Assembly: GCA_030650025.1 (NCBI GenBank)
Contig: JAUSEN010000024.1
Span: 563-64,562 of the forward strand
Reading direction: 5' to 3'
DNA length: 64,000 bases
From: Candidatus Magasanikiibacteriota bacterium
GTDB lineage: Bacteria > Patescibacteriota > Patescibacteriia > Magasanikbacterales > GWA2-37-8
Positions 6,187-44,526 of the stretch are shown here, in pieces; the stretch's first letter is position 1; the number at the start of each line of letters is the position of its first letter. The notes under the pieces were generated by a model that worked only from the letters and a program-made list of their open reading frames with translations, ran no database searches and was not told the DNA's origin. The translations under genes and the position numbers were made by a program.

Positions 6187-8742
6187 TTACAAACTCGCTT
6201 CGCTCAAGTCTACTTCTGATGCTTTAGTAGCCACTCCTAACTGCGCGCGCTCCATGATTTCGGCTTCTACGATTTCGCGCGGGCGGCCGTATTTGAGGCG
6301 CGAGAGTTCTTTAATGGCCGCGGCCAGCTCTTTGTTGCCGGCTTGCGGCGGGTAAGTCATCATATTAAACGGCTTGGCGGCCGTATTGTCAATAAGGAGC
6401 TTAACATAGGCGGTGTATTGCTCCACGTTGAGGAGGTCATACGCGCCAAACACCGGGGCATACTCTTTCTGGAGTACCTCGGCGTCCTCGGGGCCGATGC
6501 GGAAGGTAACAAGAGAGCCGGCGTTGCCCAAGACCGCGTCGCGCACCTGGGTTTTGCCTTTGTTGTCTTCCAGTTGTTTCATGTACTGGTGGGCGATGAT
6601 AAGTTCTAGGCGATATTTACGGGCTTCTGAAAGAATGGTCGCGATTGAGTCGGTAATAAAGTTTTGGAACTCGTCTATATACAAATAAAAATCACTACGT
6701 TCTTCTTCGGGGAGCGAAGCCCGTTCGAGAGCGGTCATTTGGAGTTTGCTCACAATAATCATGCCAAGCAAGTTGGCATTAATTTCGCCGACCAAGCCTT
6801 TGGCTAAATTAACGAGCAAGATTTTTTTCTTGTCCATGATTTCTCTAAAATTAAAACCCGAGTGGGTTTGGCCGATAATATTGCGCATCATGGCGTTTTC
6901 CACAAAGCGGCCGACTTTCGAAATCAAATAACCGAGCATTTCGGATTTATGGAAGTCGCTGGTTTTGGCCATTTCTTTGTCCCAAAATGCCAGCACCACC
7001 GGGTCTTGCAATTTCTTTTTCCATTTAGCGACAAACGAATCGTCGGTAAACATGCGCGGAATTTCGGCGATCGTCCCCGGGTTTTCCATGTCGGCCATCA
7101 GAGTAAGCATGACGTTCCTCATGTTATGTTCAAACATCGGCCCGATCATGGAAGGGTCGGTGACGAGTTTATAAAATATGGAGACCATTTCTTGAGTGAC
7201 AAAATCTTTTTGTTCCTCGGTTCTGGCTTCAAGCATATTGAGACCGATAGGGCGGTCCACATCGGACGGGTTGAAATAAATAACGTCGTCCACCCGTTCT
7301 TTGGGGATATGCTGTAAAACATATTCTACAAAATCGCCGTGCGGATCAACCACGCAGACTCCTTCGCCATTTTGGACATCTTGCACCGCCAAATTTTGAA
7401 TGAAGACAGATTTACCGGATCCGGATTTACCAATGGTATAGAGGTGGCGACGGCGGTCGGAGCGCGTCATACGGACGATGGTTTCTATGCCGCGGTAAAC
7501 AGTGCGCCCGAGAATAATACCTTCTTTTGGCATGTTAGTGGGCGGCGGTGCTTTGCGGGCAGTTAGCCAATTAATATGCGGAGTGTCAGTGCCCGGGATA
7601 GGCAAGTGCCAAAAACTGGCCATTTCTTCGGTATTAACGACTTGGTATTGGCTAGTGTCAAATAGGCGGTAGATAGAATCGGAGATGAGGCGGGCGGGGC
7701 GAGAAGGGACCGCGGCGCCAAAACTGTTGCCATAGCGATAGATATTGTATTGTGAAAAAGCGTTGAGAATATTTTCTAGGTTGAGCTGGGCTTTCTCTTT
7801 GCTCGGCGCCGAGCTAACCACGCGGAAGCAGATTTCGAGGCCGCCGTGGCTTAGTTTTTCTTCCATGGATTTGACCATTTCTTCTTCCATTTGGGTAAGA
7901 TGGTATTGCCCCGAGGCCGAATCCATTTGTGAAGGGTCTTTTTTGCTTTTTGACAACACTTTCCAAGTTTTATAAATTTCGCGCATGATCGCGCCGCGGC
8001 GCGCGACGTATTCAAATTTTTGGCCTTCTTTAATGTCTCTAATCATATGGACGCTTTGGCCGCGCCAATCGGAGGTGGCCGGGCGAACGACATATTGGAT
8101 TACCGCGCCCTCGTTATCCAAAATTTTACTTAAGGGGTTAAGCAAAGCCAAAATCGGGTCGCTATCAATTTTTTTATAGGTTTTGAACGGAAAAGCGGAT
8201 TTATATTTAAAAAAAAGTTTAGCCCCTACCACGTGCGATTGGGGTTCAAAAATATTATAATCAAGTTCTTCGGTAATTTCCGCGTGGGGGTATTGGGCGT
8301 GGATTTGCTGTTCGATAAAGCCTTTCAGCTTATCGGGAACAGCGACATAAAAAGAGATCGCGTTCTCTTTGGCCACGATTTCAAAGGCAAGATGGTCGCC
8401 CCGCCCGCGGAGCCACTTCATAAAGCCCTTTTCCCGTTTGAGGCCGGCGACAGCGCTAAAGAGAGTGTCGGCCACGGCCACGCGCTCGCGCACCTGATTT
8501 ATGTTGTCTTCGGTATTCTGCTGGGTGTTTTCGTTTTTCTTTTCTTTGGGCACTTTAATTAAGAGGACACCGCGATGAAAAGTTTTATTTTCCCGATTTT
8601 GGGAATGAAAAATTGAGCGTAGTAAATACAAGAGTCCGACTACGGCGAGAATAATTACGACCGCGAGAGTAATATAAAAATTAGTCGGGTTCTTGGTGAC
8701 CAAGGCGGCGAAGCTCGTGATGACAAAGGCGGTGTCGCTCAT
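6187..8742 (-). CDS. T4SS coupling-protein-like P-loop ATPase (VirD4/TraG/TrwB family) with an N-terminal transmembrane and extra domain
   Basis: The Walker A motif is IGKSGSGKS and is followed by VVDPHGD. A Walker B-like motif (LYIDEFQNF) and a C-terminal AHQYMKQL (Q..QL-like) motif are present. Confidence 0.6.
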   Translation of the reverse strand: MSDTAFVITSFAALVTKNPTNFYITLAVVIILAVVGLLYLLRSIFHSQNRENKTFHRGVLLIKVPKEKKNENTQQNTEDNINQVRERVAVADTLFSAVAGLKREKGFMKWLRGRGDHLAFEIVAKENAISFYVAVPDKLKGFIEQQIHAQYPHAEITEELDYNIFEPQSHVVGAKLFFKYKSAFPFKTYKKIDSDPILALLNPLSKILDNEGAVIQYVVRPATSDWRGQSVHMIRDIKEGQKFEYVARRGAIMREIYKTWKVLSKSKKDPSQMDSASGQYHLTQMEEEMVKSMEEKLSHGGLEICFRVVSSAPSKEKAQLNLENILNAFSQYNIYRYGNSFGAAVPSRPARLISDSIYRLFDTSQYQVVNTEEMASFWHLPIPGTDTPHINWLTARKAPPPTNMPKEGIILGRTVYRGIETIVRMTRSDRRRHLYTIGKSGSGKSVFIQNLAVQDVQNGEGVCVVDPHGDFVEYVLQHIPKERVDDVIYFNPSDVDRPIGLNMLEARTEEQKDFVTQEMVSIFYKLVTDPSMIGPMFEHNMRNVMLTLMADMENPGTIAEIPRMFTDDSFVAKWKKKLQDPVVLAFWDKEMAKTSDFHKSEMLGYLISKVGRFVENAMMRNIIGQTHSGFNFREIMDKKKILLVNLAKGLVGEINANLLGMIIVSKLQMTALERASLPEEERSDFYLYIDEFQNFITDSIATILSEARKYRLELIIAHQYMKQLEDNKGKTQVRDAVLGNAGSLVTFRIGPEDAEVLQKEYAPVFGAYDLLNVEQYTAYVKLLIDNTAAKPFNMMTYPPQAGNKELAAAIKELSRLKYGRPREIVEAEIMERAQLGVATKASEVDLSEASL

Positions 8743-12351: not shown

Positions 12352-13569
12352 GTGAGTTATCAACAGGGGGAGGAGCATAGCTATAGGCTGGTGGCTGATT
12401 TTTTGCTATACTATAGGTATATGCTGTTTGGTAAACCCCATTCATTTTTGGGTATTGATCTTGGCGCCGGGGGCGTAAAATTAGTAGAACTAAAAACCGA
12501 GAAACACCGACCGGTTCTTTTTACTTATGCCGTCACAACCGATGGCCAGGACGTGCATCGCTTGCTCCACGAGAGCGTGAACACTCCCGAAGAAGGGAAA
12601 AAACAAAACCAGGCCAAAGTCAAAGAGTACGCGGCGGTTTTAAAGGCGGTTTGCGCCCGCGCCAACGCCAAGTCCAAGAACGCGGTCGTGAGCTTGCCGG
12701 TGTCGTCGGTATTTCATGCTTTGGTAACTTTGCCAGCGGCCAAGAAAGAAGATTTCGATCATTTTTTAAAAGCAGAAGTAAAGAAACTCCTGCCCTACCC
12801 GCTCGAGGAAGCAGTCTTGGATTATCAAATTTTGCCCGGGGAGGAAAAAGCTACCACCAAGCGGGTTTTGGTGAACGCGGTGCCGCGTGATTTGGTGGTT
12901 TTTTATACCGAGGTGTTTGCCGAGGCTGGCCTTAAGCTCGAGGCGCTCGAGCCCGAGTCCGTGGCCTTGGCTCGGTCTTTAATCGGGCGCGACCAGTCTG
13001 TTACCATGCTGGTGGATGTGGGGGCGGAGCGCACTAATTTTTTTATTATTGATGGGGGTGTTCCTATCACGCACCACAGCACTGAAGTGGGCGGCAATCG
13101 TTTAACAGCGATTTTTAAAAATATTTGGCAAGTGGACAGCGCGGCCGCGGAAATTTTGAAGATGGATTTATTTACGGAATTAACGCGCGGCAGTAACCAT
13201 GCGGCTGTGTCCCCCGACCCGTCTGCCGTCCCGCTTCGCCCGCGAAGCGAGGCGAGCGAGGCAAGCCGATTTAAAGCGCTGACCCTGCCGGTGGTGGATC
13301 CGATTTTAAAGGAAATACAGTATGGTTTTGAGGTCTATTTAAAGCAGAGCGGCAACGAGCAGAAACGCCCAGAAAAGGTAGTTTTGACTGGCGGAGCGGC
13401 TTTTTTACCATACCTCTCCGAGCAAATAGCGGCCAATTTTAAGATTAAGTGCTTTATTGGCGACCCGTGGGGGCGGGTTCTTTACCAAGATAGGCTAAAA
13501 CCGATTCTGCGCGCGGTAGGGCCAAGGCTAGCGGTGGCTATTGGCCTAGCATTGCGCAGTATGGTATAA
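12352..13569 (+). CDS. pilM: Type IV pilus assembly ATPase-like protein PilM; carries an in-frame GC-rich hairpin insert
   Basis: It has the actin-like fold signature FLGIDLGAGGVKLVEL. The GC-rich insert encodes PDPSAVPLRPRSEASEAS. Confidence 0.8.
   Translation: MSYQQGEEHSYRLVADFLLYYRYMLFGKPHSFLGIDLGAGGVKLVELKTEKHRPVLFTYAVTTDGQDVHRLLHESVNTPEEGKKQNQAKVKEYAAVLKAVCARANAKSKNAVVSLPVSSVFHALVTLPAAKKEDFDHFLKAEVKKLLPYPLEEAVLDYQILPGEEKATTKRVLVNAVPRDLVVFYTEVFAEAGLKLEALEPESVALARSLIGRDQSVTMLVDVGAERTNFFIIDGGVPITHHSTEVGGNRLTAIFKNIWQVDSAAAEILKMDLFTELTRGSNHAAVSPDPSAVPLRPRSEASEASRFKALTLPVVDPILKEIQYGFEVYLKQSGNEQKRPEKVVLTGGAAFLPYLSEQIAANFKIKCFIGDPWGRVLYQDRLKPILRAVGPRLAVAIGLALRSMV
13232..13249. repeat. In-frame GC-rich palindrome cgcttcgcccgcgaagcg inside pilM
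   Basis: The palindrome is read from the sequence. It sits in a locally GC-rich segment of the coding sequence. Confidence 0.6.
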
Positions 13570-14672: not shown

Positions 14673-15503
14673 ATGGCGTTTGACAGCCTACAACTAGCAG
14701 TATATTTGCTTATTAGTTTACTCGGACTTTGTTTTGGCAGTTTTGTGAATTCTTGGATGTGGCGAGTAAAAAATACACGCGAAAAGATTGGGAGGCGCAG
14801 TGTTTGTGTGCATTGCGGCGAGAAAATTATTTGGTACGACAATATTCCGTTATTTGGTTTTTTGCGGTTGCGTGGGCTTAGCCGGTGCTGCCGCCGACCG
14901 ATTCCGCAAGATTATTTTTGGGTGGAGCTCGCGGGAGGGTTCTTGTTTTTATTAGTCGCTCTTTATCATCTCAACTTAGTTATTTTTAATCCCGTTTTTT
15001 TTGCTCGGGATTTATTTTTTATTTGTATTCTGTTGGTAATCTTTTTATATGACGCCAAGTATCAGTTAATTTTAACTGGAGTAGTGGCGGCCGGGGGGTT
15101 GGGCGGTTTTATTTTTAATTTGTTCACCGCGCGGCCATTTACTACTTATATTTTGCTTTTTAATCATAATGCCGCGGCGATTGCCAGCAATCTGGCGCTC
15201 GGAGCCATAGTCGGGTGGGGTTGGTTTGCTTTCCAATATTATGCCTCGCGCGGTAAATGGGTGGGCGGCGGCGACGTGCGCCTCGGCGCTATGCTCGGCC
15301 TCTGGCTCGGCTGGCCGCTTATTCTGGTTTGTTTATTTTTTTCCTATATTCTTGGTGCTCTGGTGGCAGTGCCGTTGTTAATACTCAAGAAAAAGCAGTT
15401 TGGTTCGGCTCTGCCGTTTGGGACTTTTTTAGCAGTCGGGGCAGTGATCACGATTTTTTATGGCCAGCCAATTTTCAATTGGTATTTGAGGTTTTTAGGG
15501 TAA
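14673..15503 (+). CDS. pilD: Prepilin peptidase (A24 family)
   Basis: An N-terminal CxxC...CxxC zinc module, multiple transmembrane helices and the conserved GGGD-containing region are present. Confidence 0.8.
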   Translation: MAFDSLQLAVYLLISLLGLCFGSFVNSWMWRVKNTREKIGRRSVCVHCGEKIIWYDNIPLFGFLRLRGLSRCCRRPIPQDYFWVELAGGFLFLLVALYHLNLVIFNPVFFARDLFFICILLVIFLYDAKYQLILTGVVAAGGLGGFIFNLFTARPFTTYILLFNHNAAAIASNLALGAIVGWGWFAFQYYASRGKWVGGGDVRLGAMLGLWLGWPLILVCLFFSYILGALVAVPLLILKKKQFGSALPFGTFLAVGAVITIFYGQPIFNWYLRFLG

Positions 15504-26831: not shown

Positions 26832-27302
26832 ATGGCACACCAAAAAAAGCGGTGCCAGAGCCAGTCTCTGGCCGCCAAACGCAGGATGCGTCTCGTCATC
26901 ACCACCAAGGGCGAGCACCACGATCTGGCGGAGATTCGTGACGCGATCGTCCGCGACTACGCGGATATCTTCGGTCGCGGCTTTCGGGTCAAAATCACCT
27001 GGGGCAACGCCCTGCCGCGTGGCCGCGCTCACATCCACCGCAATGTTCGGCTCGGCGGCTACGATGATGAGCGCAACCCCATCATCATCCACCGCACGTT
27101 GGACCGCGCCGCAGTGCCCCGCTGCTATGTGGAGTGGAGCGTGTTCCACGAACTGCTCCACGCCAAGTTCGAAGTGCCGCTCTACCATGGGCGGCACGAC
27201 TTCCACCCGCGCTGGTTTCGGGTGTACGAAAGCACCTTCGCCCGCCAGGACCAGGCGCTCAAGTGGGTCGCTTACCACGCGAGCACGCTCTCCCGTTTTT
27301 AG
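26832..27302 (+). CDS. YgjP/DUF45-like zinc metallohydrolase (HExxH) encoded by a high-GC ORF
   Basis: HELLHAKF...HGRHDFHPRWF matches the DUF45 signature. The ORF is about 65% GC in a low-GC neighbourhood. Confidence 0.55.
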   Translation: MAHQKKRCQSQSLAAKRRMRLVITTKGEHHDLAEIRDAIVRDYADIFGRGFRVKITWGNALPRGRAHIHRNVRLGGYDDERNPIIIHRTLDRAAVPRCYVEWSVFHELLHAKFEVPLYHGRHDFHPRWFRVYESTFARQDQALKWVAYHASTLSRF

Positions 27303-34265: not shown

Positions 34266-34880
34266 ATGTTTCACTTGCTGATCAAAAACGCGCGCGTGCT
34301 TTTAATTTGGGGTTTGCTGGTGGCAGTCCTGTCGGCGGTAGTAAGTATTTTACTGCCGACTTTTTACGGCGCCGAAGCGCAGGTGTTGATTATTAGCCGC
34401 GACCGCGCCAACAGCGACCAATACGCTCAGGCGCGCTCGGCCGAACTGGTGGGCCAAACGATCGCGCAAGTGATGCAAACCGAGGATTTTTATAATAAAG
34501 TAATGGGGGAGACGGCCGCGGATTTTGATAAAACCCGCTGGCAGAATTTGGGAGGAAGAGAGCGCCAAAAAAAGTGGCAGCGCGATGTGGTGGGAAACGT
34601 GGTATACGGCACCAGTCTACTCAAAATTAGAGCTTATAGCAAAACCGAGAGTGACGCCGGGCTCTTCGCGACGGCGGTCGCGCAAACCGTGGCGAGCCGC
34701 GGCTGGGAATACGTCGGCGCGGATATAAATTTTAAATTAGTGGATAACCCCGTGGTTTCGCCCTGGCTAACGCGGCCCAATTGGAAATTAAACAGCCTCC
34801 TTGGCGGCGCGGTGGGTTTGATAATCGCGAGCATCTGGGTGGCGCGCTACAAACGGCACGTTCTACTTTCTAAAATCTAA
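34266..34880 (+). CDS. Wzz/chain-length-determinant-like bitopic membrane protein
   Basis: An N-terminal transmembrane helix, a periplasmic region and a C-terminal transmembrane helix (LLGGAVGLIIASIWVA) are present. Confidence 0.35.
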   Translation: MFHLLIKNARVLLIWGLLVAVLSAVVSILLPTFYGAEAQVLIISRDRANSDQYAQARSAELVGQTIAQVMQTEDFYNKVMGETAADFDKTRWQNLGGRERQKKWQRDVVGNVVYGTSLLKIRAYSKTESDAGLFATAVAQTVASRGWEYVGADINFKLVDNPVVSPWLTRPNWKLNSLLGGAVGLIIASIWVARYKRHVLLSKI

Positions 34881-34890
34881 AATTTAAAAT

Positions 34891-36537
34891 ATGGCTTCTC
34901 CGGAAAGCGGCCATGGTGGCGGGGGGCATGGTAAAGAAAAAAAGAAACCAAGAAGATCTATTTTAGAAGGGCCGCCTGTAAGGGATTCGGTAGATTCGAT
35001 GAGAGAGCAAATAGAAAATGTAGATAATCCCGATTACCCGCGCAAGCCTAAGCCGCCGGAAGATTGGACAGTGCCCTACCACCGGAAATACCGCCGAGCC
35101 GGGATTTTTGGCACGCTCCTCGCAGGAGCGATGGCAATTGGCTACCCTATTTATAAAGAATTGAATCCAGATAGAGCCCCTCGGATCGGCGCTAAGCCAA
35201 GCCCGGGTGGTAGCGATAAGAATAAAAGTCCAGCAAGTGAACAACCCCGCGGGTCTGCTAGCACTCCGAGCCAGGCGGCACCCGAGAGATTTAATGAAGC
35301 GATCGCGGCGGATGACGCGCGCGTGGCTGAAGAAGAGGCTAATCATAAAGCGGCAGAGGAAGCGGAAGTGGCGCCAGTGGCCGCGCCAGACGCCGGAGAA
35401 GCTCCCGCAACAGCTGCGGCAACCACAGAAGCAGAAGAACCGAGCGCGCCAGTTGTTTCAGCAGAGCCAGCGGTTACCGAGGAGAGTGGGGAAGAAGAAA
35501 ATACCGGAGTAAGCGGTCTCACGGATGCTTCGGGTCGGTACAGATTAAAAATAAATGTACCCGGTTTGCCGGCTGGTTATAATTTAAATTTTAATAGAGC
35601 GCCAGGGCCAGCCATCGCGGCGAACGCGAACACTCTAGAGGTAGCGGCAGTTAAAGAAAAACCTTTGGGGCCAGAAGTTATTCCGATTGATTTAGCTCCG
35701 ACGGAAACTTTAGCCACGCAAATGGTAGCCGGCGAGCCCGTGCAAGTTTTGGCGGGGCGCTATTCGCGAGAAGAAATTACTCGAGCTCTCAATCACGCGC
35801 GCATTTTGGAACAGCGCATCATGGCGGCGAAAGATTTGCGTTCAGAATACGCCCCTAATCCGGCTGGCGCCCGGGCGGCCGCGCAAAAGCTGAAGCAAAC
35901 TAAAGAAGAACTAGCCGCGTTTCGTTTAGGACTGTTGCGCGGGGAAGAAGTAAGTTTTGCGGAACGCGATTTGCGCGAAATTGGGCCTGGTGTCTATCAC
36001 GAAGCTGTTAAAGCGGAATTGCGCGAGGCGATTGATGCCACGGTGGGGCAAGCCATGATAGCTAAAAAAGATAGCGGGAAAAGTTTGACAGAAATTTTGC
36101 CAGTCGGCAGTGGAGACGCTCATACAAAACCGGAACCGCTCGTCGTGCGTATTGTTAGGGAAGGAGAAGCAACGCGAGTGGAAGTCCCCGCTGATTCATT
36201 TACACTCGCGCAGTACGCGGCGTTGTTTGACGCCCCCGAGCGTTTTGTTCATAGCGGATTATTTAAAGCCAAAATTGACTTTGAGAAACCAGCGGGAGTG
36301 GCTCCAGATAAACGCGCGGCGTGGCAAAGAGAAGCCAAACGAGAACTTCCGCGGGCCACAGTTTTAAAAAAAGTTTTAGGTCAGACTCCGGTCGGTACGC
36401 AAGCTTACGAAGCGGTGAAAGCCGAATTGCAAGCAGTGGTAGTGAGGCTAACAACCTCGTTTGGCGCGCGGCCAGCGGACTTATTTGATTCTAAACTTTT
36501 GGATAGATTAGATATTGTTTGGGAAGATAAAAAATAG
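34891..36537 (+). CDS. Hypothetical protein with a Gly/Lys-rich N-terminus and Ala/Glu/Pro-rich low-complexity sequence
   Basis: It is an ORF only, with a terminator hairpin at 36551-36596. Confidence 0.35.
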   Translation: MASPESGHGGGGHGKEKKKPRRSILEGPPVRDSVDSMREQIENVDNPDYPRKPKPPEDWTVPYHRKYRRAGIFGTLLAGAMAIGYPIYKELNPDRAPRIGAKPSPGGSDKNKSPASEQPRGSASTPSQAAPERFNEAIAADDARVAEEEANHKAAEEAEVAPVAAPDAGEAPATAAATTEAEEPSAPVVSAEPAVTEESGEEENTGVSGLTDASGRYRLKINVPGLPAGYNLNFNRAPGPAIAANANTLEVAAVKEKPLGPEVIPIDLAPTETLATQMVAGEPVQVLAGRYSREEITRALNHARILEQRIMAAKDLRSEYAPNPAGARAAAQKLKQTKEELAAFRLGLLRGEEVSFAERDLREIGPGVYHEAVKAELREAIDATVGQAMIAKKDSGKSLTEILPVGSGDAHTKPEPLVVRIVREGEATRVEVPADSFTLAQYAALFDAPERFVHSGLFKAKIDFEKPAGVAPDKRAAWQREAKRELPRATVLKKVLGQTPVGTQAYEAVKAELQAVVVRLTTSFGARPADLFDSKLLDRLDIVWEDKK

Positions 36538-36596: not shown

Positions 36597-36800
36597 GGCT
36601 ATGCACAGCTATTTTAAGGCTTAGACATTGACAAAAAGCTGATTTTGTGTTATATTGATTTGTCCTGCAAAATGCGGGAAAAGGGTCGGTAAAAGCGCCC
36701 AAAATTATTTAGGCATTTTTACGGACCCCGAGGAACCTCTGTTACAGAGACCTTGACGGGAACCACCACCTACCTGGCGCGATCGCCAGAGGAGGAAGCC

Positions 36801-37850
36801 ATGAAGATCATGGCCGAGAACTGGAAGCACGCGGCGATCGCACTCGCCGCTCTGTTCACCTTGTTCGCGGGTGCGACCGCGAACGCCGAAGACGGCGACC
36901 AGTCCGTTTTCTACGCGGCTGCCACGCCTCCGCTCCCCGCGCCGGCTCCGACCACGATCGCCGTTCCGCTCACGGAGGCGGAGAGGGCCACCCTGGCCGA
37001 GTGCCGGCAGATCGAGGCCAAGCGGCCTGCCCGGCCGCGCAAGGCTCTGAAGTCGGCGCCCAAGATGAGCGACGACTGTCGGAAAATCTGGGCGGCGGCC
37101 CAGAAGGCCTTCGGGAATGGGCGCTTTGGCGAGGCGCTCCGACTCTTCCACAAGGGCATGGAAGAGTGCGGCCAGCCGGCCTGGCGTTTCAACGCCGGCG
37201 CGACCCACAAGGCGCTCACGCGCTACGTGGGGTGCAATCCGCAGAACATCGCGGAAGCGCGGCGGGAGGTCGCGGAGTACATCGCCGCGGCCACGGAGGA
37301 CGAACAAACGCGGAGGCTCCTGCGGGAGATTGACGCGTTCGAGAAGTCCTGCCAGGCAGCTGACGCGGAGCCGCCTGAACGGAAGCCGGCGCCGGTGGCC
37401 GACGCCCAGCCTACTGGGAGCGGCCCGCCGCCCGCCTGCCCGCCCACGCAGGTCGTCTGCCCGACGGTGCCCCCGTGCCCGTCGTGCCCGAACTGCGAGC
37501 TCACCTGCCCGCCCATGCAGGTGAACTGCCCCACCGGCGCGTTGCCCACCGCGCCGCCTCCGCCGGCTCCTTCCCAGGAGCCGCAACCGCCCCCCCTGCC
37601 CCCGGTGCAGGAGCGCCGGGTCGTCCCTCTGCCCGAGTCGGACGACCCCCCGCCCGTCCCGGCTAGGAGGGCCAAGCCCCCCTGCCAGAAATGCCCGCCG
37701 CCTGGACCTTTCCAGGACGGCGACAGCATCGTCGGCAAGGCCAGGGGCTTTGAGCGCGCGGGGCGCGCGCTCAAAGAGAAGTGGGACGCGCGGGCAACGC
37801 GTCTCGAAACCAAAGCGGCGGCGGCCGAGGCGGCCGCCGCCCAGCCGTAA
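36801..37850 (+). CDS. Secreted Pro/Cys-rich protein encoded by a roughly 70% GC ORF (GC-rich cassette 1)
   Basis: A ribosome-binding site (gaggagga) precedes the ORF. A signal peptide (MKIMAENWKHAAIALAALFTLFAGATANA) and CPxxP/PPCP-type motifs are present. The ORF ends at the shared 3' stem-loop element. Confidence 0.5.
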   Translation: MKIMAENWKHAAIALAALFTLFAGATANAEDGDQSVFYAAATPPLPAPAPTTIAVPLTEAERATLAECRQIEAKRPARPRKALKSAPKMSDDCRKIWAAAQKAFGNGRFGEALRLFHKGMEECGQPAWRFNAGATHKALTRYVGCNPQNIAEARREVAEYIAAATEDEQTRRLLREIDAFEKSCQAADAEPPERKPAPVADAQPTGSGPPPACPPTQVVCPTVPPCPSCPNCELTCPPMQVNCPTGALPTAPPPPAPSQEPQPPPLPPVQERRVVPLPESDDPPPVPARRAKPPCQKCPPPGPFQDGDSIVGKARGFERAGRALKEKWDARATRLETKAAAAEAAAAQP

Positions 37851-37937: not shown

Positions 37938-37990
37938 GGGGACGAGAATGAGAATTTTCAGGACTAGCAAAACTCGTCTCCTCCCCAATT
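37938..37990 (+). repeat. Conserved 3' stem-loop element (ggggacgagaatgagaattttcaggactagcaaaactcgtctcctccccaattgt), copy 1
   Basis: It is nearly identical to 39842-39893, and a partial match lies at 42410-42445. Confidence 0.6.
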
Positions 37991-38209
37991 GTTCTCGGGT
38001 TTTATAAACGTGAGAATTGAAGGGATTTATAACAATTTGATCTTTGAAAAAATTAAAAACAAAAAAGAACTCCCTTGCGGGAGTTCCGAGATTCAGAGCA
38101 GCTTTGCTACGACTAAGATTATCAACAAATGAATGATAACATCACTGTAATGTTATGTCAAATAATTTATCCACAAAAACAAAAGCCCCGAATTTATCAG
38201 GGCTTTAGA

Positions 38210-38295
38210 TGGTGGACGGAGGGGGGATCGAACCCCAGGAACTAAGTTGATAATCCTAGACGCGGCGCCAGCCGCTCTCCGCCCTCAAATCCACC
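38210..38295 (-). ncRNA. tRNA-like small RNA gene A, with its own promoter
   Basis: The fold has acceptor GGGCGGA/TCCGTCC with a G3:U70 pair, D-arm GCGG/CCGC, T-loop TTCGATC, discriminator A and an encoded CCA. The anticodon arm is irregular (8-nt loop AUUAUCAA). A TTGCAT-N17-TAAAAT promoter lies about 14 nt upstream of the mature end, and a hairpin plus T-run lies downstream. Confidence 0.35.
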
Positions 38296-38606
38296 ATGAA
38301 GGATTTTATCATAGTGCTCTTTAAAATGCAACTTTATAAGTATTTATTTATGTGGATAAACGACCATAGGCATCTTGACAAACTAGAGAATTTGTGCTAT
38401 ACTTATTTGTTAGATTAAAAAACAGGTTTTTTAGTCTAATTATAGAGAAATTCTGGCAAAGTTGCTAAGATTAGCAGTTTTGCCAGGGTTTTTACCAAAA
38501 TGCCCTCAAATCAACTGTTCTTTACAACCATGAACCACCCCGCACCACAAGGGTGCAGGGTAAAAAATGGTTCATGGCAAGCAATAGTGTCCCAACATAA
38601 ACACCA

Positions 38607-38660
38607 GTCCTACCGGGAACAAAGATTTGTAATCATACAATTCTTTTTCCCCGGTAGGAC
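38607..38660 (+). promoter_or_regulatory. Conserved leader hairpin (gtcctaccggg...AT-rich loop...cccggtaggac), followed by a ribosome-binding site; copy 1
   Basis: The same stem and downstream tcacgccgagttctccgaaagggatcctcaaggaggatg are found at 40549-40676. Confidence 0.55.
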
Positions 38661-38702
38661 TCACGCCGAGTTCTCCGAAAGGGATCCTCAAGGAGGATGA
38701 AC

Positions 38703-39758
38703 ATGACCATGACCCGTAGTTTCGAGGGTTTCGGCACGGCGGCCATGTTGGCCGCGACCCTGCTCGTGGGGACCTTCACGAGCACCGCGCACGCCGACGC
38801 CTTCATCGCGACCAGCGCGATCGACGAGTGCTGCGGCAACCGGAACCCCGGCGCGGAGAGCATGGTCTGCACGCAGACCGTCAAGACGGCCTGCTGCACC
38901 GGCAACGCTCTGACGCCGATGCCGGACGGTTCTCTCCCCGCGGCCTGCAACACCGCGGTGAAGCAGGTCCTCGTGGCTGCCCGTCGCGAGATCGACGCCA
39001 AGACCCCGGGCGCCACTGTCCCGGCCGCCACCCCCGCCCCCTCGGGCAGGGTGAACGGATTCGACGACGAGATGGACGTCGCCGTCGATTCCGAGGCACG
39101 GAGCAAGGCCGCCCGGGCCGAGCGGATCGCGGCTCGCGCTCGCGAGGACGCGGGCGGGGCCAAGGCCTTCGCCCGTCGCTCGGCCAGGGCCGCCGAGCAC
39201 GCCGCCGACGACGCCCAGCTCGCGGCCGAGAACGCCGAAGCCGCCGCCAGCGCCGCCCGCGAGGGTGACGAGTGCGACGACTGCGGACGCTCGCGGCAGG
39301 TCGCAGCGAACCAGGACGCCATCACCCGCGCTCTGCGCGCGGCCGGGGGGTACGACATCCTCCCGGGGACCGTGAACGTGGTCCGTGGCGGCGGCGCCGA
39401 GCAGCGCACCGAGTCGCCCCCGACGCTCGCCTTCACCGGTTTCGGTGCGGGCAACGGCGACGGCGCACCGAACGGGGAGCTCCCGGGACGGCTCGGGGCC
39501 GTCCGGCTCCGGATCGTGGATTCCAACGGAATTCGCAACCTGGAGACGGGCCCCGCGGCCCTGCTCGTGCCCGGGTCGGCCGACCTGCTCAAGCCCATCG
39601 GCCGCTCGTGGTGCGCCAGGAACACGGGGGCCTGCGTGGCCCTGTCCATCCTGGTTCCCATCATCGCCACCAGCGCGGCGATCACCATCGGGGTGGTCGG
39701 AGACCAGCAGGGCTGGTTCCGGGGTCCGGACCAGAACATCACTCTGGTCGTCCGGTAG
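38703..39758 (+). CDS. Secreted protein of unknown function encoded by a roughly 70% GC ORF (GC-rich cassette 2)
   Basis: Its N-terminus (MTMTRSFEGFGTAAMLAATLLVGTFTS) is shared with the 40677 ORF. It has an Ala/Arg-rich central region. The ORF ends at the shared 3' stem-loop. Confidence 0.5.
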   Translation: MTMTRSFEGFGTAAMLAATLLVGTFTSTAHADAFIATSAIDECCGNRNPGAESMVCTQTVKTACCTGNALTPMPDGSLPAACNTAVKQVLVAARREIDAKTPGATVPAATPAPSGRVNGFDDEMDVAVDSEARSKAARAERIAARAREDAGGAKAFARRSARAAEHAADDAQLAAENAEAAASAAREGDECDDCGRSRQVAANQDAITRALRAAGGYDILPGTVNVVRGGGAEQRTESPPTLAFTGFGAGNGDGAPNGELPGRLGAVRLRIVDSNGIRNLETGPAALLVPGSADLLKPIGRSWCARNTGACVALSILVPIIATSAAITIGVVGDQQGWFRGPDQNITLVVR

Positions 39759-39841: not shown

Positions 39842-39893
39842 GGGGACGAGAATGAGAATTTTCAGGACTAGCAAAACTCGTCTCCTCCCCAAT
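39842..39893 (+). repeat. Conserved 3' stem-loop element, copy 2
   Basis: It matches 37938-37990. Confidence 0.6.
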
Positions 39894-40042
39894 TGTCTTG
39901 CTCTTAAGTAGTTAAGGGCGGGACTGAAGGGAATCAAGTTCTTTTAAAATAAAAACCCCGCACCACAAGGGTGCAGGGCAAGAAAAATAATTTAAATTAA
40001 AATCCCCTCTAGTAATTTTAGAGAGGATTTCAGGTGGTGGAC

Positions 40043-40119
40043 GGAGGGGGATTCGAACCCCGAAACTGGGATAGCAAGCCCGGCTGTAGCGCCAGCTACT
40101 CTCCGCCCTCAAATCCACC
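40043..40119 (-). ncRNA. tRNA-like small RNA gene B, with its own promoter
   Basis: The acceptor and T-arm match those of gene A, and the D-arm is GTAG/CTAC. The anticodon region GCUUGCU (GCU anticodon) lacks a well-paired stem. A TTGCAT-N17-TAAACT promoter is present, and a CCA is encoded. Confidence 0.3.
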
Positions 40120-40548: not shown

Positions 40549-40635
40549 GTCCTACCGGGAACAAAGCCTTGTATATAATAATATTATATATATTTTATAT
40601 ATTATTTAAATACAATTCTTTTTCCCCGGTAGGAC
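40549..40635 (+). promoter_or_regulatory. Conserved leader hairpin, copy 2 (with a longer AT-rich loop)
   Basis: The same stem (gtcctaccggg / cccggtaggac) and downstream ribosome-binding-site block as at 38607-38696. Confidence 0.55.
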
Positions 40636-40676
40636 TCACGCCGAGTTCTCCGAAAGGGATCCTCAAGGAGGATGAT

Positions 40677-42314
40677 ATGACCAAGACCCGCATCGAGGGT
40701 TTCGGCAAGGCGGCCGCGTTGGCCGCAACCCTGCTCGTGGGGACCTTCACGAGCAACGGCTGCGGGAACGGACCGGTCAACCTCACCGTCGTCTACCAGG
40801 ATGACGGCGGCGCGATCCCGACCCCCAGCCCGGACCTCGCCCAGGCCCCGGCCGACCTCGCGGTCGCGCCGGACCTGACGCCCACGCCGGATCTCGCCCA
40901 GGCCCCCGTCGCCGACCTCGCGGTCGCGCCGGATCTGGCCCAGGCGCCCGACCTCACCCCGCAGTGCCCGCAGGGCCTCACCCTGTGCGGCAACCGCTGC
41001 GTCGACCTGACCGTCGACAACGCGAACTGCGGCCGGTGCGGCCAGGCGTGCGCGAATGGCGCCGAGACCTGCTCCAACGGGAAGTGCGTCTCGGCGTGTC
41101 CGCAGAACACGACGTACTGCTGGCAGAACAACGCCGGCTGCACGAACGTGCTCACCGATTCCGCGAACTGCGGGATGTGCGGCAAGGTGTGCCCCCCGGG
41201 GAACACCTGCGCGCGCGGCCAGTGCGCAGTCGACCAGAACCTCAACTGCGGGCAGAAGATCGCCTGCGGCAAGGACTGCATCGACATCGCCAACGACCCG
41301 GTGAACTGCGGCGGCTGTGGCAAGGCCTGCTCGGCCATCAACATCGATGGCAACCCGACGTGCACCGGGAAGGTGTGCACGGGTCAGTGCCGTCCCAATT
41401 TCGGGGACTGCGACAGCAACAAGCTGACCAACGGCTGCGAGACCAACCTCATGACCTCCGTGGGCAACTGCGGCGGCTGCGGGGTCGAGGTCCCGCAGAA
41501 TCTCCCGAACACGAGTTCGTCCATCTGCCAGCTCGGCGCGTTCACCCCGGTCTGCAAGCCCGACTTCGGGGACTGCAACGTGTGGTGGCGCGACGGGTGC
41601 GAGATCAACTTTCTCGCGGACGACAACAACTGCGGCCAGTGCGGCAACTGGTGCGCGTGGGGCGAAGTCTGCCTCCAGGGCGTCTGCAAGGAGCCCCCTT
41701 GCCCGATGAACCAGACCAGGTGCTTCGGCGCCTGCAAGGACCTCTCGGCTGACCCCCAGTACTGCGGCGCTTGCAATCAGGCGTGCAAGCAGGGTGAGAC
41801 CTGCAAGCAGGGGCAGTGCATCGCCCCCCCGCAGCCCGACCTCGGCGGCAACAACGTCGACATGGCGTCGCCGCCGGACCTCGGTACCCCCCAGGGCGAC
41901 CTGGCCCAGGCCGCCAGGTACGAATTGAAGGTCTCGGACCCGAAGCCGGGGACGAACGTCGAGGTGTGGTTGACCTCGAACGCGATGGGGGCGCTCCACA
42001 GCTTTGCCCCCAGCACCTTCAGCCTCTCGGCCGCCGACATCTGCGGCCACATGGTCCGGGGGCAGGTCAGCCCGGGCCTTGAGGGGTGGGTTCGGGACTA
42101 CACCGGGGATCCGGCTGGGAACAGCTGGATCGGCTGCCCGCCCAACCCGCGGGCGGTCACCGAGCTCACGTACGAGTTCGGCCCGGTGGGGATGATGAAG
42201 AAGCCGGTGCCGGCCAAGGGTGTCGGGCAGGTCGACGCCTGCAACGGCATGGGCATGCCGAACTTCTTCATCACCCAGGCCGATCTGGCGGCCGCGGGCC
42301 TGGTCTGCCCGTAG
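40677..42314 (+). CDS. Secreted or lipoprotein-like protein with PDLAQAP repeats and Myxococcus-type cysteine-rich (CGxCG...C) repeats, encoded by a roughly 70% GC ORF (GC-rich cassette 3)
   Basis: The N-terminus MTKTRIEGFGKAAALAATLLVGTFTSNGC is followed by more than ten NCGxCGxxC-type repeats and a C-terminal non-repeat domain. Confidence 0.55.
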   Translation: MTKTRIEGFGKAAALAATLLVGTFTSNGCGNGPVNLTVVYQDDGGAIPTPSPDLAQAPADLAVAPDLTPTPDLAQAPVADLAVAPDLAQAPDLTPQCPQGLTLCGNRCVDLTVDNANCGRCGQACANGAETCSNGKCVSACPQNTTYCWQNNAGCTNVLTDSANCGMCGKVCPPGNTCARGQCAVDQNLNCGQKIACGKDCIDIANDPVNCGGCGKACSAINIDGNPTCTGKVCTGQCRPNFGDCDSNKLTNGCETNLMTSVGNCGGCGVEVPQNLPNTSSSICQLGAFTPVCKPDFGDCNVWWRDGCEINFLADDNNCGQCGNWCAWGEVCLQGVCKEPPCPMNQTRCFGACKDLSADPQYCGACNQACKQGETCKQGQCIAPPQPDLGGNNVDMASPPDLGTPQGDLAQAARYELKVSDPKPGTNVEVWLTSNAMGALHSFAPSTFSLSAADICGHMVRGQVSPGLEGWVRDYTGDPAGNSWIGCPPNPRAVTELTYEFGPVGMMKKPVPAKGVGQVDACNGMGMPNFFITQADLAAAGLVCP

Positions 42315-42486
42315 GCCGCCGCCGATAGTAGTCAAACCGCTTTTGCCCCGAGTCACGCGGGCCGGCCCTGAAAGGAGGCCAAAACGTGACATGGGGTGGG
42401 TCAATGAGACTTCACAGATACGGCAAAACTCACCCCTCCCCAATTGTGTTCATCATCACAAGGTGGTGAATAGAAACTAGGGACAA

Positions 42487-42522
42487 AAAAACCACCCCGA
42501 CGTAAAGTCGGGGTGGTTTTTT
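42487..42522. terminator. Bidirectional rho-independent terminator (aaaaaaaccaccccgac-gtaaa-gtcggggtggtttttt)
   Basis: A perfect hairpin flanked by A-runs and T-runs. Confidence 0.6.
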
Positions 42523-42542: not shown

Positions 42543-42857
42543 TTAAATGGACAGTTGCGGGAATGGCTCCAGGGAAGTAATTTTGCTTGTCTCTGATTTT
42601 ATAAGAACCTTTTTATTCCCTAGTATTTCTACAAGTTTATTAAGTTTGTTGTCTTCTTTGCGAGTTAGAACAACTAAATCGCCTTTAAGATTCCCTAGTT
42701 TTTTATCTAGGTATTCTTTGGTAACCATTTGTGATTCTACTTTGGTTAAGCGATTATCCAATTTTTCTATTTTTTCGCTAAACTCCTGTTTAGTTACCGC
42801 GTTGTCTTTAATAAAGCGTACGGTTTCTAAAATATCATCAAGTTTATCATTGGTCAT
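42543..42857 (-). CDS. Small coiled-coil protein, hypothetical
   Basis: ORF only. Confidence 0.35.
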   Translation of the reverse strand: MTNDKLDDILETVRFIKDNAVTKQEFSEKIEKLDNRLTKVESQMVTKEYLDKKLGNLKGDLVVLTRKEDNKLNKLVEILGNKKVLIKSETSKITSLEPFPQLSI

Positions 42858-43041: not shown

Positions 43042-44526
43042 ATGCGTTTAAACATCGATTTTTTGCGTCCCAAAAATTTCCCCCTCTCGGTAGACCAGTG
43101 CGTGGGCTTGGCGCTAAGCGTCATGACCGGTTTTTTGTTGTATAGTGTGGCAATAGATTTTAATTTACCTATTTATTTGTTTGCCACTGTTCTGACCGGC
43201 TGGTTTATTTTTTATTATCCCGAGGTAGGGCTGATCGTAGCACTGCTCTCCACGCTGTGGTTTGAGCGCTGGTTTACTCTGGCGCCAATTGTCTTCGGCG
43301 GCACGGTTTATAAATTATATCCGCTGGATGTTATTCTCGCCTTGGTTGGCCTTAGCATTTTGTGGCATATTTATACCGGCCAAATGCCGCGCCCGAGTTT
43401 TAAGCGTTTTAAATTGGACACGGCCATTCTACTATTTGGCGCGGTTTGTTTTTTTAGTTACGCGGCTTCTTGGTTTAAGCCCACGGATCCGGCGCTGGCG
43501 TTTGGCACGTTTAAAAATTATTTTTTGTACGCGGTAGTTTATCTTTATAGCATTATTCTTTTTAATAGTAGTGAGAGTTGGGCGCGCCTCATGCGCTGGC
43601 TCAAAATCGGCGGCTTTGGACTGTTGTTTTTCTTATTGTTAGGGGTTCTGCGCGGGCAGGGTATGTGGAGCGAGGCGCAAACATTGTCCACGGCCGGGGC
43701 GCGCCTCCTCGCGCAAAGCCACGCGTTTTACTTTTTACTTTTCGCGTTATGGCTTGGGGTGGCGTATTTGTGGCCGCAAAATCAGTGGTGGCGGGTTTCC
43801 CGAAAAACGCTTTGGTGGCTGCTTCTCCTCGCGGTTTTTGGGGTAGTGGTGTCGCTCCAGCGGCACTTGTGGCTTACTGGCACGATTATTTTAGTTACTT
43901 GGTTTATTTTTTTAGAGAGCGCGGAGCGCCGCCGCTTGCTTAGCATCATAGGCTGGGCTCTCGGCGCGGCCGCTTTAGCTGGCCTAATCTATATGTGGAT
44001 TCTGCTCTTGTTGTTTGGCCGTTTGCCGGCTTCGGTTTCGAAAACCGCCAATATTATTCAACAGCGAGCGAGTCTTTCGATGATGCTGAACCAAGGGGAC
44101 ACGAGCGCGAATTGGCGCTGGGCGGCTTGGCGGGGCGGTTTAAAACTTTGGGCCGTACACCCCATTATTGGCACGGGTCTCGGGCAAAAGATTTATGGCT
44201 ATGACAAAACCTATTTATTCGAGGTGGCGGCGCGCGAGCTTCACAACAATTATTTAGGGATTTTAGTGCAAATGGGGTTACTCGGCGCCGCGGCAACAGC
44301 TTATTGGTTCTGGCGCTTGCTCAAATTGCTCTACGCTTTGTGGCAAAAAGCGGCCGCGAGCAGTTTAGCGCCATTTGTGCTGGGGTGGGGGAGCGTGGTT
44401 CTGGTATTTATGATCGTGTTTAGCGTGTCGGTTTATTGGGATACTAATTTTTTGATAATCTGGTGGTGGCTCGCGCTCGCCGCGCTCCGGTTCGCGGCCG
44501 TGGAATTAAAAATTGAATCCCTATGA
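43042..44526 (+). CDS. O-antigen ligase/polymerase family (Wzy_C domain) membrane protein
   Basis: It has more than ten transmembrane helices. ELHNNYLGILVQMGLLG matches the Wzy_C signature. Confidence 0.6.
   Translation: MRLNIDFLRPKNFPLSVDQCVGLALSVMTGFLLYSVAIDFNLPIYLFATVLTGWFIFYYPEVGLIVALLSTLWFERWFTLAPIVFGGTVYKLYPLDVILALVGLSILWHIYTGQMPRPSFKRFKLDTAILLFGAVCFFSYAASWFKPTDPALAFGTFKNYFLYAVVYLYSIILFNSSESWARLMRWLKIGGFGLLFFLLLGVLRGQGMWSEAQTLSTAGARLLAQSHAFYFLLFALWLGVAYLWPQNQWWRVSRKTLWWLLLLAVFGVVVSLQRHLWLTGTIILVTWFIFLESAERRRLLSIIGWALGAAALAGLIYMWILLLLFGRLPASVSKTANIIQQRASLSMMLNQGDTSANWRWAAWRGGLKLWAVHPIIGTGLGQKIYGYDKTYLFEVAARELHNNYLGILVQMGLLGAAATAYWFWRLLKLLYALWQKAAASSLAPFVLGWGSVVLVFMIVFSVSVYWDTNFLIIWWWLALAALRFAAVELKIESL

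Follow-up and report, generated by a model that had tools for sequence, protein, structure and literature searches.

An earlier note, made from the letters of the sequence alone, had drawn attention to one open reading frame (ORF) in a 64,000-nucleotide (nt) stretch of a Candidatus Magasanikiibacteriota genome (contig JAUSEN010000024.1, positions 563 to 64,562; hereafter the window). It read the product as a secreted protein with Myxococcus-type cysteine-rich repeats, recently acquired by a low-GC genome. This ORF, here called G3, ends in a TAG stop codon, encodes 545 amino acids and is preceded by an AAGGAGG Shine-Dalgarno (SD) sequence 5 nt ahead of its ATG; its product is identical to the NCBI protein Q7K39_04200 ('Candidatus Magasanikbacteria bacterium'). 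A composition profile of the window resolved three GC-rich blocks, G1, G2 and G3, all on the plus strand and all with signal peptides (Table 1). GC at third codon positions (GC3) is 0.87–0.94 in these three genes compared to 0.44–0.63 in the eleven native genes measured, and the relative synonymous codon usage of G3 correlates with that of a 69% GC donor-type contig at r = 0.88 and with that of host genes at r = 0.22. At each island gene the GC-rich part consists of the ORF and about 80 nt of 3' tail, surrounded by DNA of host composition; the spacers within the island have a host-like GC content of 38–40%. The earlier note gave a GC content of 70%, and that of G3 is 68.8%; 'low-GC' does not describe its genome, the rest of the window being of moderate GC content (46%).

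Sequence features and structure prediction divide the G3 protein into a signal peptide, a proline-rich linker, a Cys-rich region and a second linker followed by a C-terminal region. The PDL-type repeats that had been reported after the signal peptide are there, five of them in residues 52–93, and two more fall in residues 387–402. Of 51 cysteines, 46 lie in residues 97–381, where the modules follow one another in the order A-A-A-B-B-A. Type A reads CPxGxxxCGxxC...D..NCGxCGxxC...CxxGxC and type B FGDC(D/N)....GCE....NCGxCG, with one CGxC core per module (five NCGxC and one YCGAC). Both strings quoted from the protein occur verbatim (NCGRCGQACANGAETCSNGKCVSAC at residues 117–141 and NCGGCGKACS at residues 210–219), and the description of a secreted, disulfide-rich repeat protein stands; the number of N-C-G-x-C-G modules is six rather than 'more than ten', a figure reached only by counting each CxxGxC half-motif.

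Using an alignment of 60 sequences, AlphaFold returned block-mean predicted local distance difference test (pLDDT) values of 76–96 for the Cys-rich region (about residues 96–385), which is modelled as a linear array of small β-hairpin modules, and values below 50 for the N-terminal 95 and the C-terminal 155 residues. Predicted as a single sequence, the C-terminal region reached a pLDDT of 34.5, and we claim no fold for it. It matched no family; a HMMER search of 1.84 billion representatives gave two weak matches, to Big_2-type and to SdrD/SpaA-type repeat proteins (E = 6e-6 for the Big_2-like one), and a similarity to the C-terminus of the protein P0021 was rejected as not significant. The C-terminal globular domain proposed earlier is present as a region of about 130 residues (414–545), its globular fold being unconfirmed at pLDDT values below 50.

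In profile hidden Markov model (HMM) searches of Pfam and NCBIfam, G3 scored above the cut-offs of two families, with E-values that speak against a chance match: Pfam PF04885, Stig1 (67.8 bits versus a gathering cut-off of 24.1, E = 1.2e-18, four stretches), and NCBIfam NF041328, MXAN_6577-like cysteine-rich protein (142.5 bits versus a curated cut-off of 100, E = 8.5e-42). The NCBIfam scan at E ≤ 10 returned only NF041328 and a match to SslE that we discarded as spurious; TIGR02232 and TIGR04201 were not matched, assuming that both are in release 20, and HMMER filters discard most matches above E ~0.1 even at this setting. On that assumption, G3 would fall outside the classic Myxococcus Cys-repeat (TIGR02232) and TraA-type (TIGR04201) families. 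The earlier claim of a Myxococcota-type repeat is upheld by NF041328 and by the named relatives, which are Myxococcota, but not by the classic Myxococcus repeat models. No significant match to EGF-like modules was seen either, with no Pfam EGF match and a best Foldseek match in the PDB of E = 0.056, and no related PDB chain was found by sequence.

G3 has 654 relatives in total, and source names were taken from the 120 listed. Apart from G3's own record and a protein termed P0006, considered below, the sources of these 120 are all Polyangiales, Myxococcales, Myxococcota or 'Deltaproteobacteria' metagenome-assembled genomes (MAGs). The listed Myxococcota proteins are 30–42% identical to G3 over its Cys-rich half only, and a typical one, P0002, lies in a contig of uniform 69% GC. 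The family has the same module consensus as G3 (CxxGxxxCxGxC...D..NCGxCGxxC...CxxGxC and GFxDCDG....GCE...NCGxCG). Linkers of PD(L/V)A type and a Cys right behind the signal peptide also occur among homologs, and in most of those displayed this is a lipobox Cys. G3 differs from them in residing in Patescibacteria, in a 46% GC genome, and in its unique C-terminal region; it is counted as shorter, with six modules, the 120 listed relatives being about 420–950 residues long. G3 and P0006 are the only members among the matches from a candidate phyla radiation (CPR) context. Plant STIG1, the founder of PF04885, is a small, single-domain, stigma-specific signalling peptide; like G3 it is secreted and disulfide-rich and matches the same HMM, whereas G3 has several modules and is probably anchored, and a common HMM does not imply a common ligand. 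A literature search for MXAN_6577 and for STIG1-like proteins of Myxococcota found nothing. G3 is an addition, in an unexpected phylum, to a known but functionally uncharacterised family.

GC content changes abruptly three times in this MAG, and exact repeats of 55–66 nt, able to confuse an assembler, flank the jumps; GC-rich segments of a co-occurring high-GC organism might thus have been stitched into a CPR contig during assembly or binning. However, three Logan contigs assembled from run SRR13727527 align with the window at 100% identity and confirm three of the six GC junctions, including both outer ones. Contig L005 runs from 11 kb of native genes into G1 across the low-GC/G1 5' junction, L001 leads from 31 nt of leader into the G3 start, through G3 and on into the native downstream terminator, and L004 extends into the Wzy gene that follows the island. 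These contigs break inside exact repeats only, and the junctions crossed by L005 and L001 lie in unique sequence. Moreover, the start codons are correctly spaced from SD sequences in host-composition DNA, and a different sample (SRR22387912) shows this arrangement again. A chimera of G1–G3 with a high-GC organism was rejected on the evidence of the independent contigs, and the artefact reading, to which we leave next to no probability, is largely refuted. Exact-sequence look-ups of Wzy and of a 548-residue protein encoded directly upstream of the island found the same sample only.

The island lies between a Wzz-like gene (34266–34880) and a Wzy_C O-antigen-ligase-like gene (43042–44526), with methyltransferases, a family 4 glycosyltransferase (GT4) and a glycosyl hydrolase downstream of the latter; together these genes indicate a cell-envelope polysaccharide cluster. 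The remainder of the window is ordinary chromosome, with genes for IF3, tmRNA, DNA polymerase III tau, CysRS, LigA, PPDK, Mur ligases, MurB, an MraY-type GT4 and type IV pilus components. Behind its signal peptide, G1 has a helical N-domain that contains Cys, then a linker rich in Pro and Cys and a basic, Ala-rich tail, and G2, also secreted, has a Cys-rich N-terminal part, an Ala-rich helical middle and a hydrophobic C-terminal helix. Both match only themselves in a collection of 5.8 billion proteins and neither has a Pfam, NCBIfam or PHROG family; weak matches to AbiV (E = 0.01–0.05) were below the cut-off and were rejected. The 548-residue protein (34891–36537, plus strand) is also present in the independent assembly; its gene has a GC peak of 61–63% at 35200–35500, and the middle of the protein is acidic, of low complexity and rich in Ala, Pro and Glu, with no match to a Pfam family. 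A very AT-rich, 104-residue coiled-coil-like ORF (42543–42857, minus strand, 33% GC) lies between the island and Wzy; it has weak, sub-threshold family matches and is missing from the syntenic locus described below.

The 64 kb yielded no integrase, transposase or reverse transcriptase (ORFs of at least 150 residues and a few shorter ones were tested), and no partial-tRNA direct repeat that would mark a tRNA attachment site was identified at the island, despite two tRNA-like genes inside it. The composition of G1–G3 and the distant-lineage (Myxococcota) relatives of G3 are those of a genomic island, but mobility genes and a repeat-flanked tRNA attachment site were not seen. Horizontal gene transfer and genomic islands are known in Patescibacteria, and Myxococcota are not among the donor phyla listed (PMC12455944). 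As in those islands, G1–G3 form a compositionally deviant accessory block in a streamlined CPR genome; unlike them, they lack mobility genes, are syntenic in a diverged genome and show no amelioration.

Table 1. Positions of the island genes, parts of the G3 protein, and predicted elements of the spacers (window numbering; a full stop in the strand column denotes a bidirectional element)
Feature	Position	Strand	Remarks
Promoter of G1, σ70-like	36628..36656	+	TTGACA-17-TATATT, TG-extended; 11/12 consensus positions
G1	36801..37850	+	71.7% GC, GC3 0.87; 349 residues; Q7K39_04190
3' motif, copy 1	37938..37992	+	After G1; GGGGACGAG...CTCGTCTCCTCCCCAATTGT; 100% identical to copy 2
Aberrant tRNA-like gene 1	38210..38284	-	8-nt anticodon loop AUUAUCAA; minus-strand terminator directly after
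Promoter of G2, σ70-like	38375..38403	+	TTGACA-17-TATACT; 11/12 consensus positions
Shared leader, copy 1	38606..38700	+	Long perfect hairpin, then SD hairpin; folding z = -5.1
G2	38703..39758	+	72.6% GC, GC3 0.91; 351 residues; Q7K39_04195
3' motif, copy 2	39842..39896	+	After G2
Aberrant tRNA-like gene 2	40035..40108	-	Same 8/4 geometry; anticodon loop CUUGCUAU; own terminator
Shared leader, copy 2	40549..40675	+	Same hairpin arms, AT-rich loop expanded by ~45 nt, then SD hairpin; folding z = -5.3
G3	40677..42314	+	68.8% GC, GC3 0.94; Q7K39_04200
G3 signal peptide, residues 1-29	40677..40763	+	MTKTRIEGFGKAAALAATLLVGTFTSNGC; n-h-c layout; Cys29 aligns with lipobox Cys of P0006 (LALTGC)
G3 Pro-rich linker, PDLA/PDLT-type, residues 46-95	40812..40961	+	AlphaFold pLDDT <50, consistent with disorder
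G3 Cys-rich region, residues 97-382	40965..41822	+	Six STIG1-like/MXAN_6577-like modules, 46 Cys; from HMM matches and AlphaFold
G3 second PDL linker (residues 383-413) and C-terminal region (residues 414-545, 4 Cys)	41823..42311	+	
3' motif, copy 3	42393..42447	+	After G3; diverged, same GGGG...CCCCTCCCCAATTGT frame
Intrinsic terminator	42486..42522	.	Closes the island before the Wzy operon; analogous terminator visible at the comparator locus L002

Several elements recur in the host-composition DNA around the three ORFs. Promoters of σ70 type, predicted by consensus match only, were seen for G1 and G2 and none for G3. G2 and G3 share a leader, of which a 66-nt stretch (40610–40675 in the G3 copy), holding the 3' arm of the long hairpin, is 100% identical between the two copies. 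In the second leader hairpin the AAGGAGG SD sequence is paired with a UUCUCC that lies upstream of it, a hint of translational control. The likeness continues into the coding sequence, where 66 nt of signal-peptide DNA are 92% identical between G2 and G3 and end just before the Gly28-Cys29 codons of G3. A 55-nt motif stands 80–90 nt past each island stop codon and ends in CCTCCCCAATTGT; its pattern, GAAAGGGGA...stem-loop...CTCCTCCCCAATTGT, occurs at just three sites in the 64 kb. It is a candidate terminator or stability element, or a candidate recombination site. Neither leader nor motif belongs to a known Rfam family (miRNA and sRNA matches were below cut-off and were set aside), and viral contigs contained neither the motif nor the tRNA-like gene.

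Taken as recombination sites, comparable to integron attC sites or IS200/IS605-type ends, the leader and the 3' motif could have allowed foreign ORFs to be plugged into a resident expression platform. Such cassette capture would explain why, in all three genes, the GC switch coincides precisely with the ORF, why the motif follows each ORF at 80–90 nt with two copies 100% identical (a recognisable copy also follows the first island ORF of the comparator locus L002, at about 1182–1236), why one leader and signal peptide precede two unrelated mature proteins in G2 and G3, and why small repeats of the two island spacers occur in shuffled order. On the other hand, window ORFs of at least 150 residues yielded no tyrosine recombinase, Y1 transposase or reverse transcriptase, the spacers of 700–800 nt with their own promoters and tRNA-like genes set the island apart from integron arrays, the motif has only a weak consensus hairpin (-4.3 kcal/mol, three covarying pairs among four sequences), and viral contigs lack the motif. 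We consider this account very unlikely. An integron in the strict sense, with IntI, attI and contiguous ORF-attC units, does not fit a 64-kb window without a tyrosine recombinase and units spaced 700–800 nt apart; transposons and diversity-generating retroelements were likewise rejected for want of a recombinase or reverse transcriptase in the window.

The age of the island was judged from a single comparator locus, L002, a CPR-like contig of 5.6 kb from a different run (SRR22387912). It encodes P0006, the closest relative of G3, from which it differs at about half of the residues (51% identity) across 63% of the protein; the two are reciprocal best matches (228/226 bits, next best 149/133). 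P0006 itself scores 66.9 bits against Stig1 and 122.6 bits against NF041328. Its gene occupies the same position as G3, directly upstream of Wzy_C (58% identical to the window Wzy) and a methyltransferase (53%), and has a GC3 of 0.92 compared to 0.60 for its neighbours. Another GC-rich ORF (GC3 0.88) precedes it, whose N-domain aligns weakly with G1 and has three conserved Cys. At four-fold degenerate sites in identical residues, G3 and P0006 are 58.5% identical where 44% is expected from composition, and the two Wzy genes are 40% identical where 33% is expected; synonymous sites of both pairs are close to saturation. The two proteins have the stalk in common but unrelated C-terminal domains: one further module and a Cys-rich tail of about 85 residues in L002 (2460–2834), a 130-residue region with few Cys in the window (41916–42311). 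Toward its N-terminal end, too, the stalk differs in module number.

These data bear directly on the proposal that a 69% GC gene was recently acquired from a Myxococcota-like donor, the L002 gene being an independent arrival at a common hot spot. Recent arrival would account for the donor-like composition and codon usage of G3 (GC3 0.94, four of 82 four-fold sites A/T-ending, r = 0.88), for the orphan status of G1 and G2, and for the restriction of G2 to the window's genome, where the 100% identical leader and 3' motif copies around it imply at least one recent rearrangement. However, the closest relative of G3 is the syntenic CPR-like gene and not a myxobacterial protein, and synonymous sites between the two are near saturation, comparably to those of Wzy. 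A fresh block should also have brought donor intergenic DNA, whereas the island spacers are of host composition with host-type promoters; no donor copy of at least 90% identity exists in the 5.8-billion-protein collection, which includes the assembly of the same sample; and no integrase or transposase was found in the 64 kb. We regard recent acquisition as unlikely. The observation and, in spirit, the family assignment of the earlier note hold up, and its inference of recent acquisition is contradicted by the synteny with P0006 and the near-saturated sites of an equally GC-rich gene in a diverged CPR-like contig.

Instead, we propose that G3 is an expressed-looking, horizontally derived STIG1-like/MXAN_6577-like gene, the third of a G1-G2-G3 island that has been domesticated in a Magasanikbacteria-type CPR chromosome rather than freshly arrived there, and that it encodes a membrane-anchored stalk with a variable tip; we put the probability of this reading at about 0.68. 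Host-composition DNA would supply the σ70-type promoter (G1, G2), the SD-sequestering leader (G2, G3) and the 55-nt 3' motif. After export by the Sec pathway, G3 would probably be lipid-anchored through Cys29 in the cytoplasmic membrane, the CPR cell being monoderm-like, as expected because the family usually has a lipobox Cys and the LALTGC Cys of P0006 aligns with Cys29. The flexible PDLA linker would hold the protein away from the membrane, the six disulfide-locked β-hairpin modules would form a rigid rod, and the rod would present the lineage-variable C-terminal domain as a tip for surface recognition or adhesion. A conserved stalk, a wholly different C-terminal domain and module gain or loss between orthologs are the pattern expected of a variable-tip recognition or adhesion protein. 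Such an anatomy is compatible with an adhesin, and an adhesin or recognition protein is the most likely function; that its ligand lies on a host cell, and that the host is a myxobacterium, is speculation.

A conceptual parallel is the kin-recognition receptor TraA of Myxococcus xanthus, which reaches the surface by Sec export and whose Cys-rich tandem repeats are proposed to act as a rigid stalk that displays a polymorphic recognition domain (PMC3325183). TraA combines PA14, TIGR04201 and MYXO-CTERM, whereas G3 has no TIGR04201 match (E ≤ 10, the model being assumed to be in the library), no PA14 and no MYXO-CTERM, and its orientation is reversed, with the variable domain C-terminal and the anchor N-terminal. 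The G3 model also resembles tandem EGF rods such as Notch EGF11-13, a linear string of disulfide-stabilised β-hairpins; these were its top Foldseek matches, but weak and not significant (best E = 0.056, probability ≤0.54).

Several points weigh against the domesticated-stalk reading. The lipobox pattern that we used, [LVI][ASTVI][GAS]C closing the signal peptide, is not followed by G3, which reads T-S-N-G-C29 and is non-canonical at -3 and -2; the residues upstream of Cys29 appear to have been overwritten by a G2-type signal peptide. The C-terminal 'head' has no confident fold, and its sole relatives are weak Big_2-like ones. Expression and localisation of G3 are predictions from its sequence. 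Oxidative folding of 46 Cys requires a disulfide-forming system, and none was seen in the window. Scanning genome and metagenome contig collections with the Wzy protein, a Wzy alignment and a G3 plus P0006 alignment yielded no further syntenic loci. Finally, the persistence of a GC3 of about 0.93 is unexplained by simple vertical inheritance under the host mutation regime: over such a time the substitution regime of the neighbours would be expected to bring the GC3 of the island well toward 0.5–0.6, and it has not done so.

Two explanations of this last point may be considered, a GC-favouring force acting on the island in situ, or separate and precise arrivals at the same site in both lineages. 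On the one comparator locus, the former is favoured because of the synteny, the reciprocal best matches and the host-composition spacers with host-type promoters. Taken further, the Wzz–Wzy interval would be a dedicated, long-lived locus for myxobacterial-type surface proteins, in which donor-like codon usage (GC3 ~0.9) is actively maintained in a 46–53% GC genome, the leader and 3' motif service the genes and the 8/4 tRNA-like genes lie alongside; in short, a 'host-mimicry' cassette locus that does not ameliorate. The maintaining force could be selection at the DNA or mRNA level, or else a recombination hot spot with GC-biased conversion. We think this extended version improbable; if true, such a maintained host-mimicry locus would suggest that the hosts of these Magasanikbacteria, so far unknown, are Myxococcota.

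To our knowledge, the hosts and attachment molecules of almost all Parcubacteria-type CPR bacteria, Magasanikbacteria included, are unknown. A module family that is otherwise a hallmark of Myxococcota, found in a conserved CPR surface protein, is therefore a concrete and testable lead on which cells are touched and by what means. Moreover, two syntenic copies with a GC3 of about 0.93 beside native genes at 0.5–0.6, despite near-saturated divergence, offer an unusually clean natural case for the question of whether amelioration of foreign genes is universal; otherwise, a GC-favouring force may hold donor composition, or orthologous genes may have arrived repeatedly at the same site. The island context, conserved, non-ameliorated, with shared flanks and odd tRNA-like genes, is of more interest than G3 itself.

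The two tRNA-like genes lie in the spacers of the island. By hand reading, the acceptor stem of both is 8 bp long and contains a G3:U pair, the T stem measures 4 bp, the D stem 5 bp and closes on a tetraloop, and the variable arm is only 4–5 nt; position 73 is an A, and CCA is encoded in the gene. They form 22 pairs with 97.7% of cells paired, and three differences between the copies are compensatory. ARAGORN reports both as 'tRNA-???' with the four-base anticodons tatc and tgct, and Rfam scores them as tRNA-Sec at 24–27 bits versus a cut-off of 47. They seem to be unannotated by NCBI, since the locus tags run consecutively. The G3:U pair and A73 would make the acceptor Ala-type. Allo-tRNAs with 8/4 geometry include G3:U70 variants, which inserted Ala in E. 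coli, and a UAU-anticodon group that is possibly non-translational (PMC5389517). The genes described here are like these allo-tRNAs in the 8-bp plus 4-bp acceptor branch, the long D stem with a tetraloop and the G3:U pair, but differ in lacking a long variable arm, in their 8-nt anticodon loops and in occurring in a CPR genome. If functional, they would widen the range of non-canonical tRNAs to CPR bacteria.

Elsewhere in the window, a fourth gene of elevated GC content (26832–27302, plus strand; 62% GC, GC3 ~0.78) is flanked by a cupredoxin gene on one side and the L20/L35/IF3 operon on the other. It encodes 156 residues with a HELLH (HExxH) motif, matches no Pfam or PHROG family and may likewise be foreign. 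The window also encodes a TrwB/TraG-like type IV coupling-protein homolog (6187–8742, minus strand), PilM (12352–13569, plus strand) and a prepilin peptidase (14673–15503, plus strand), all with roles in DNA transfer, uptake or pili that could bear on the entry of foreign DNA into this genome.

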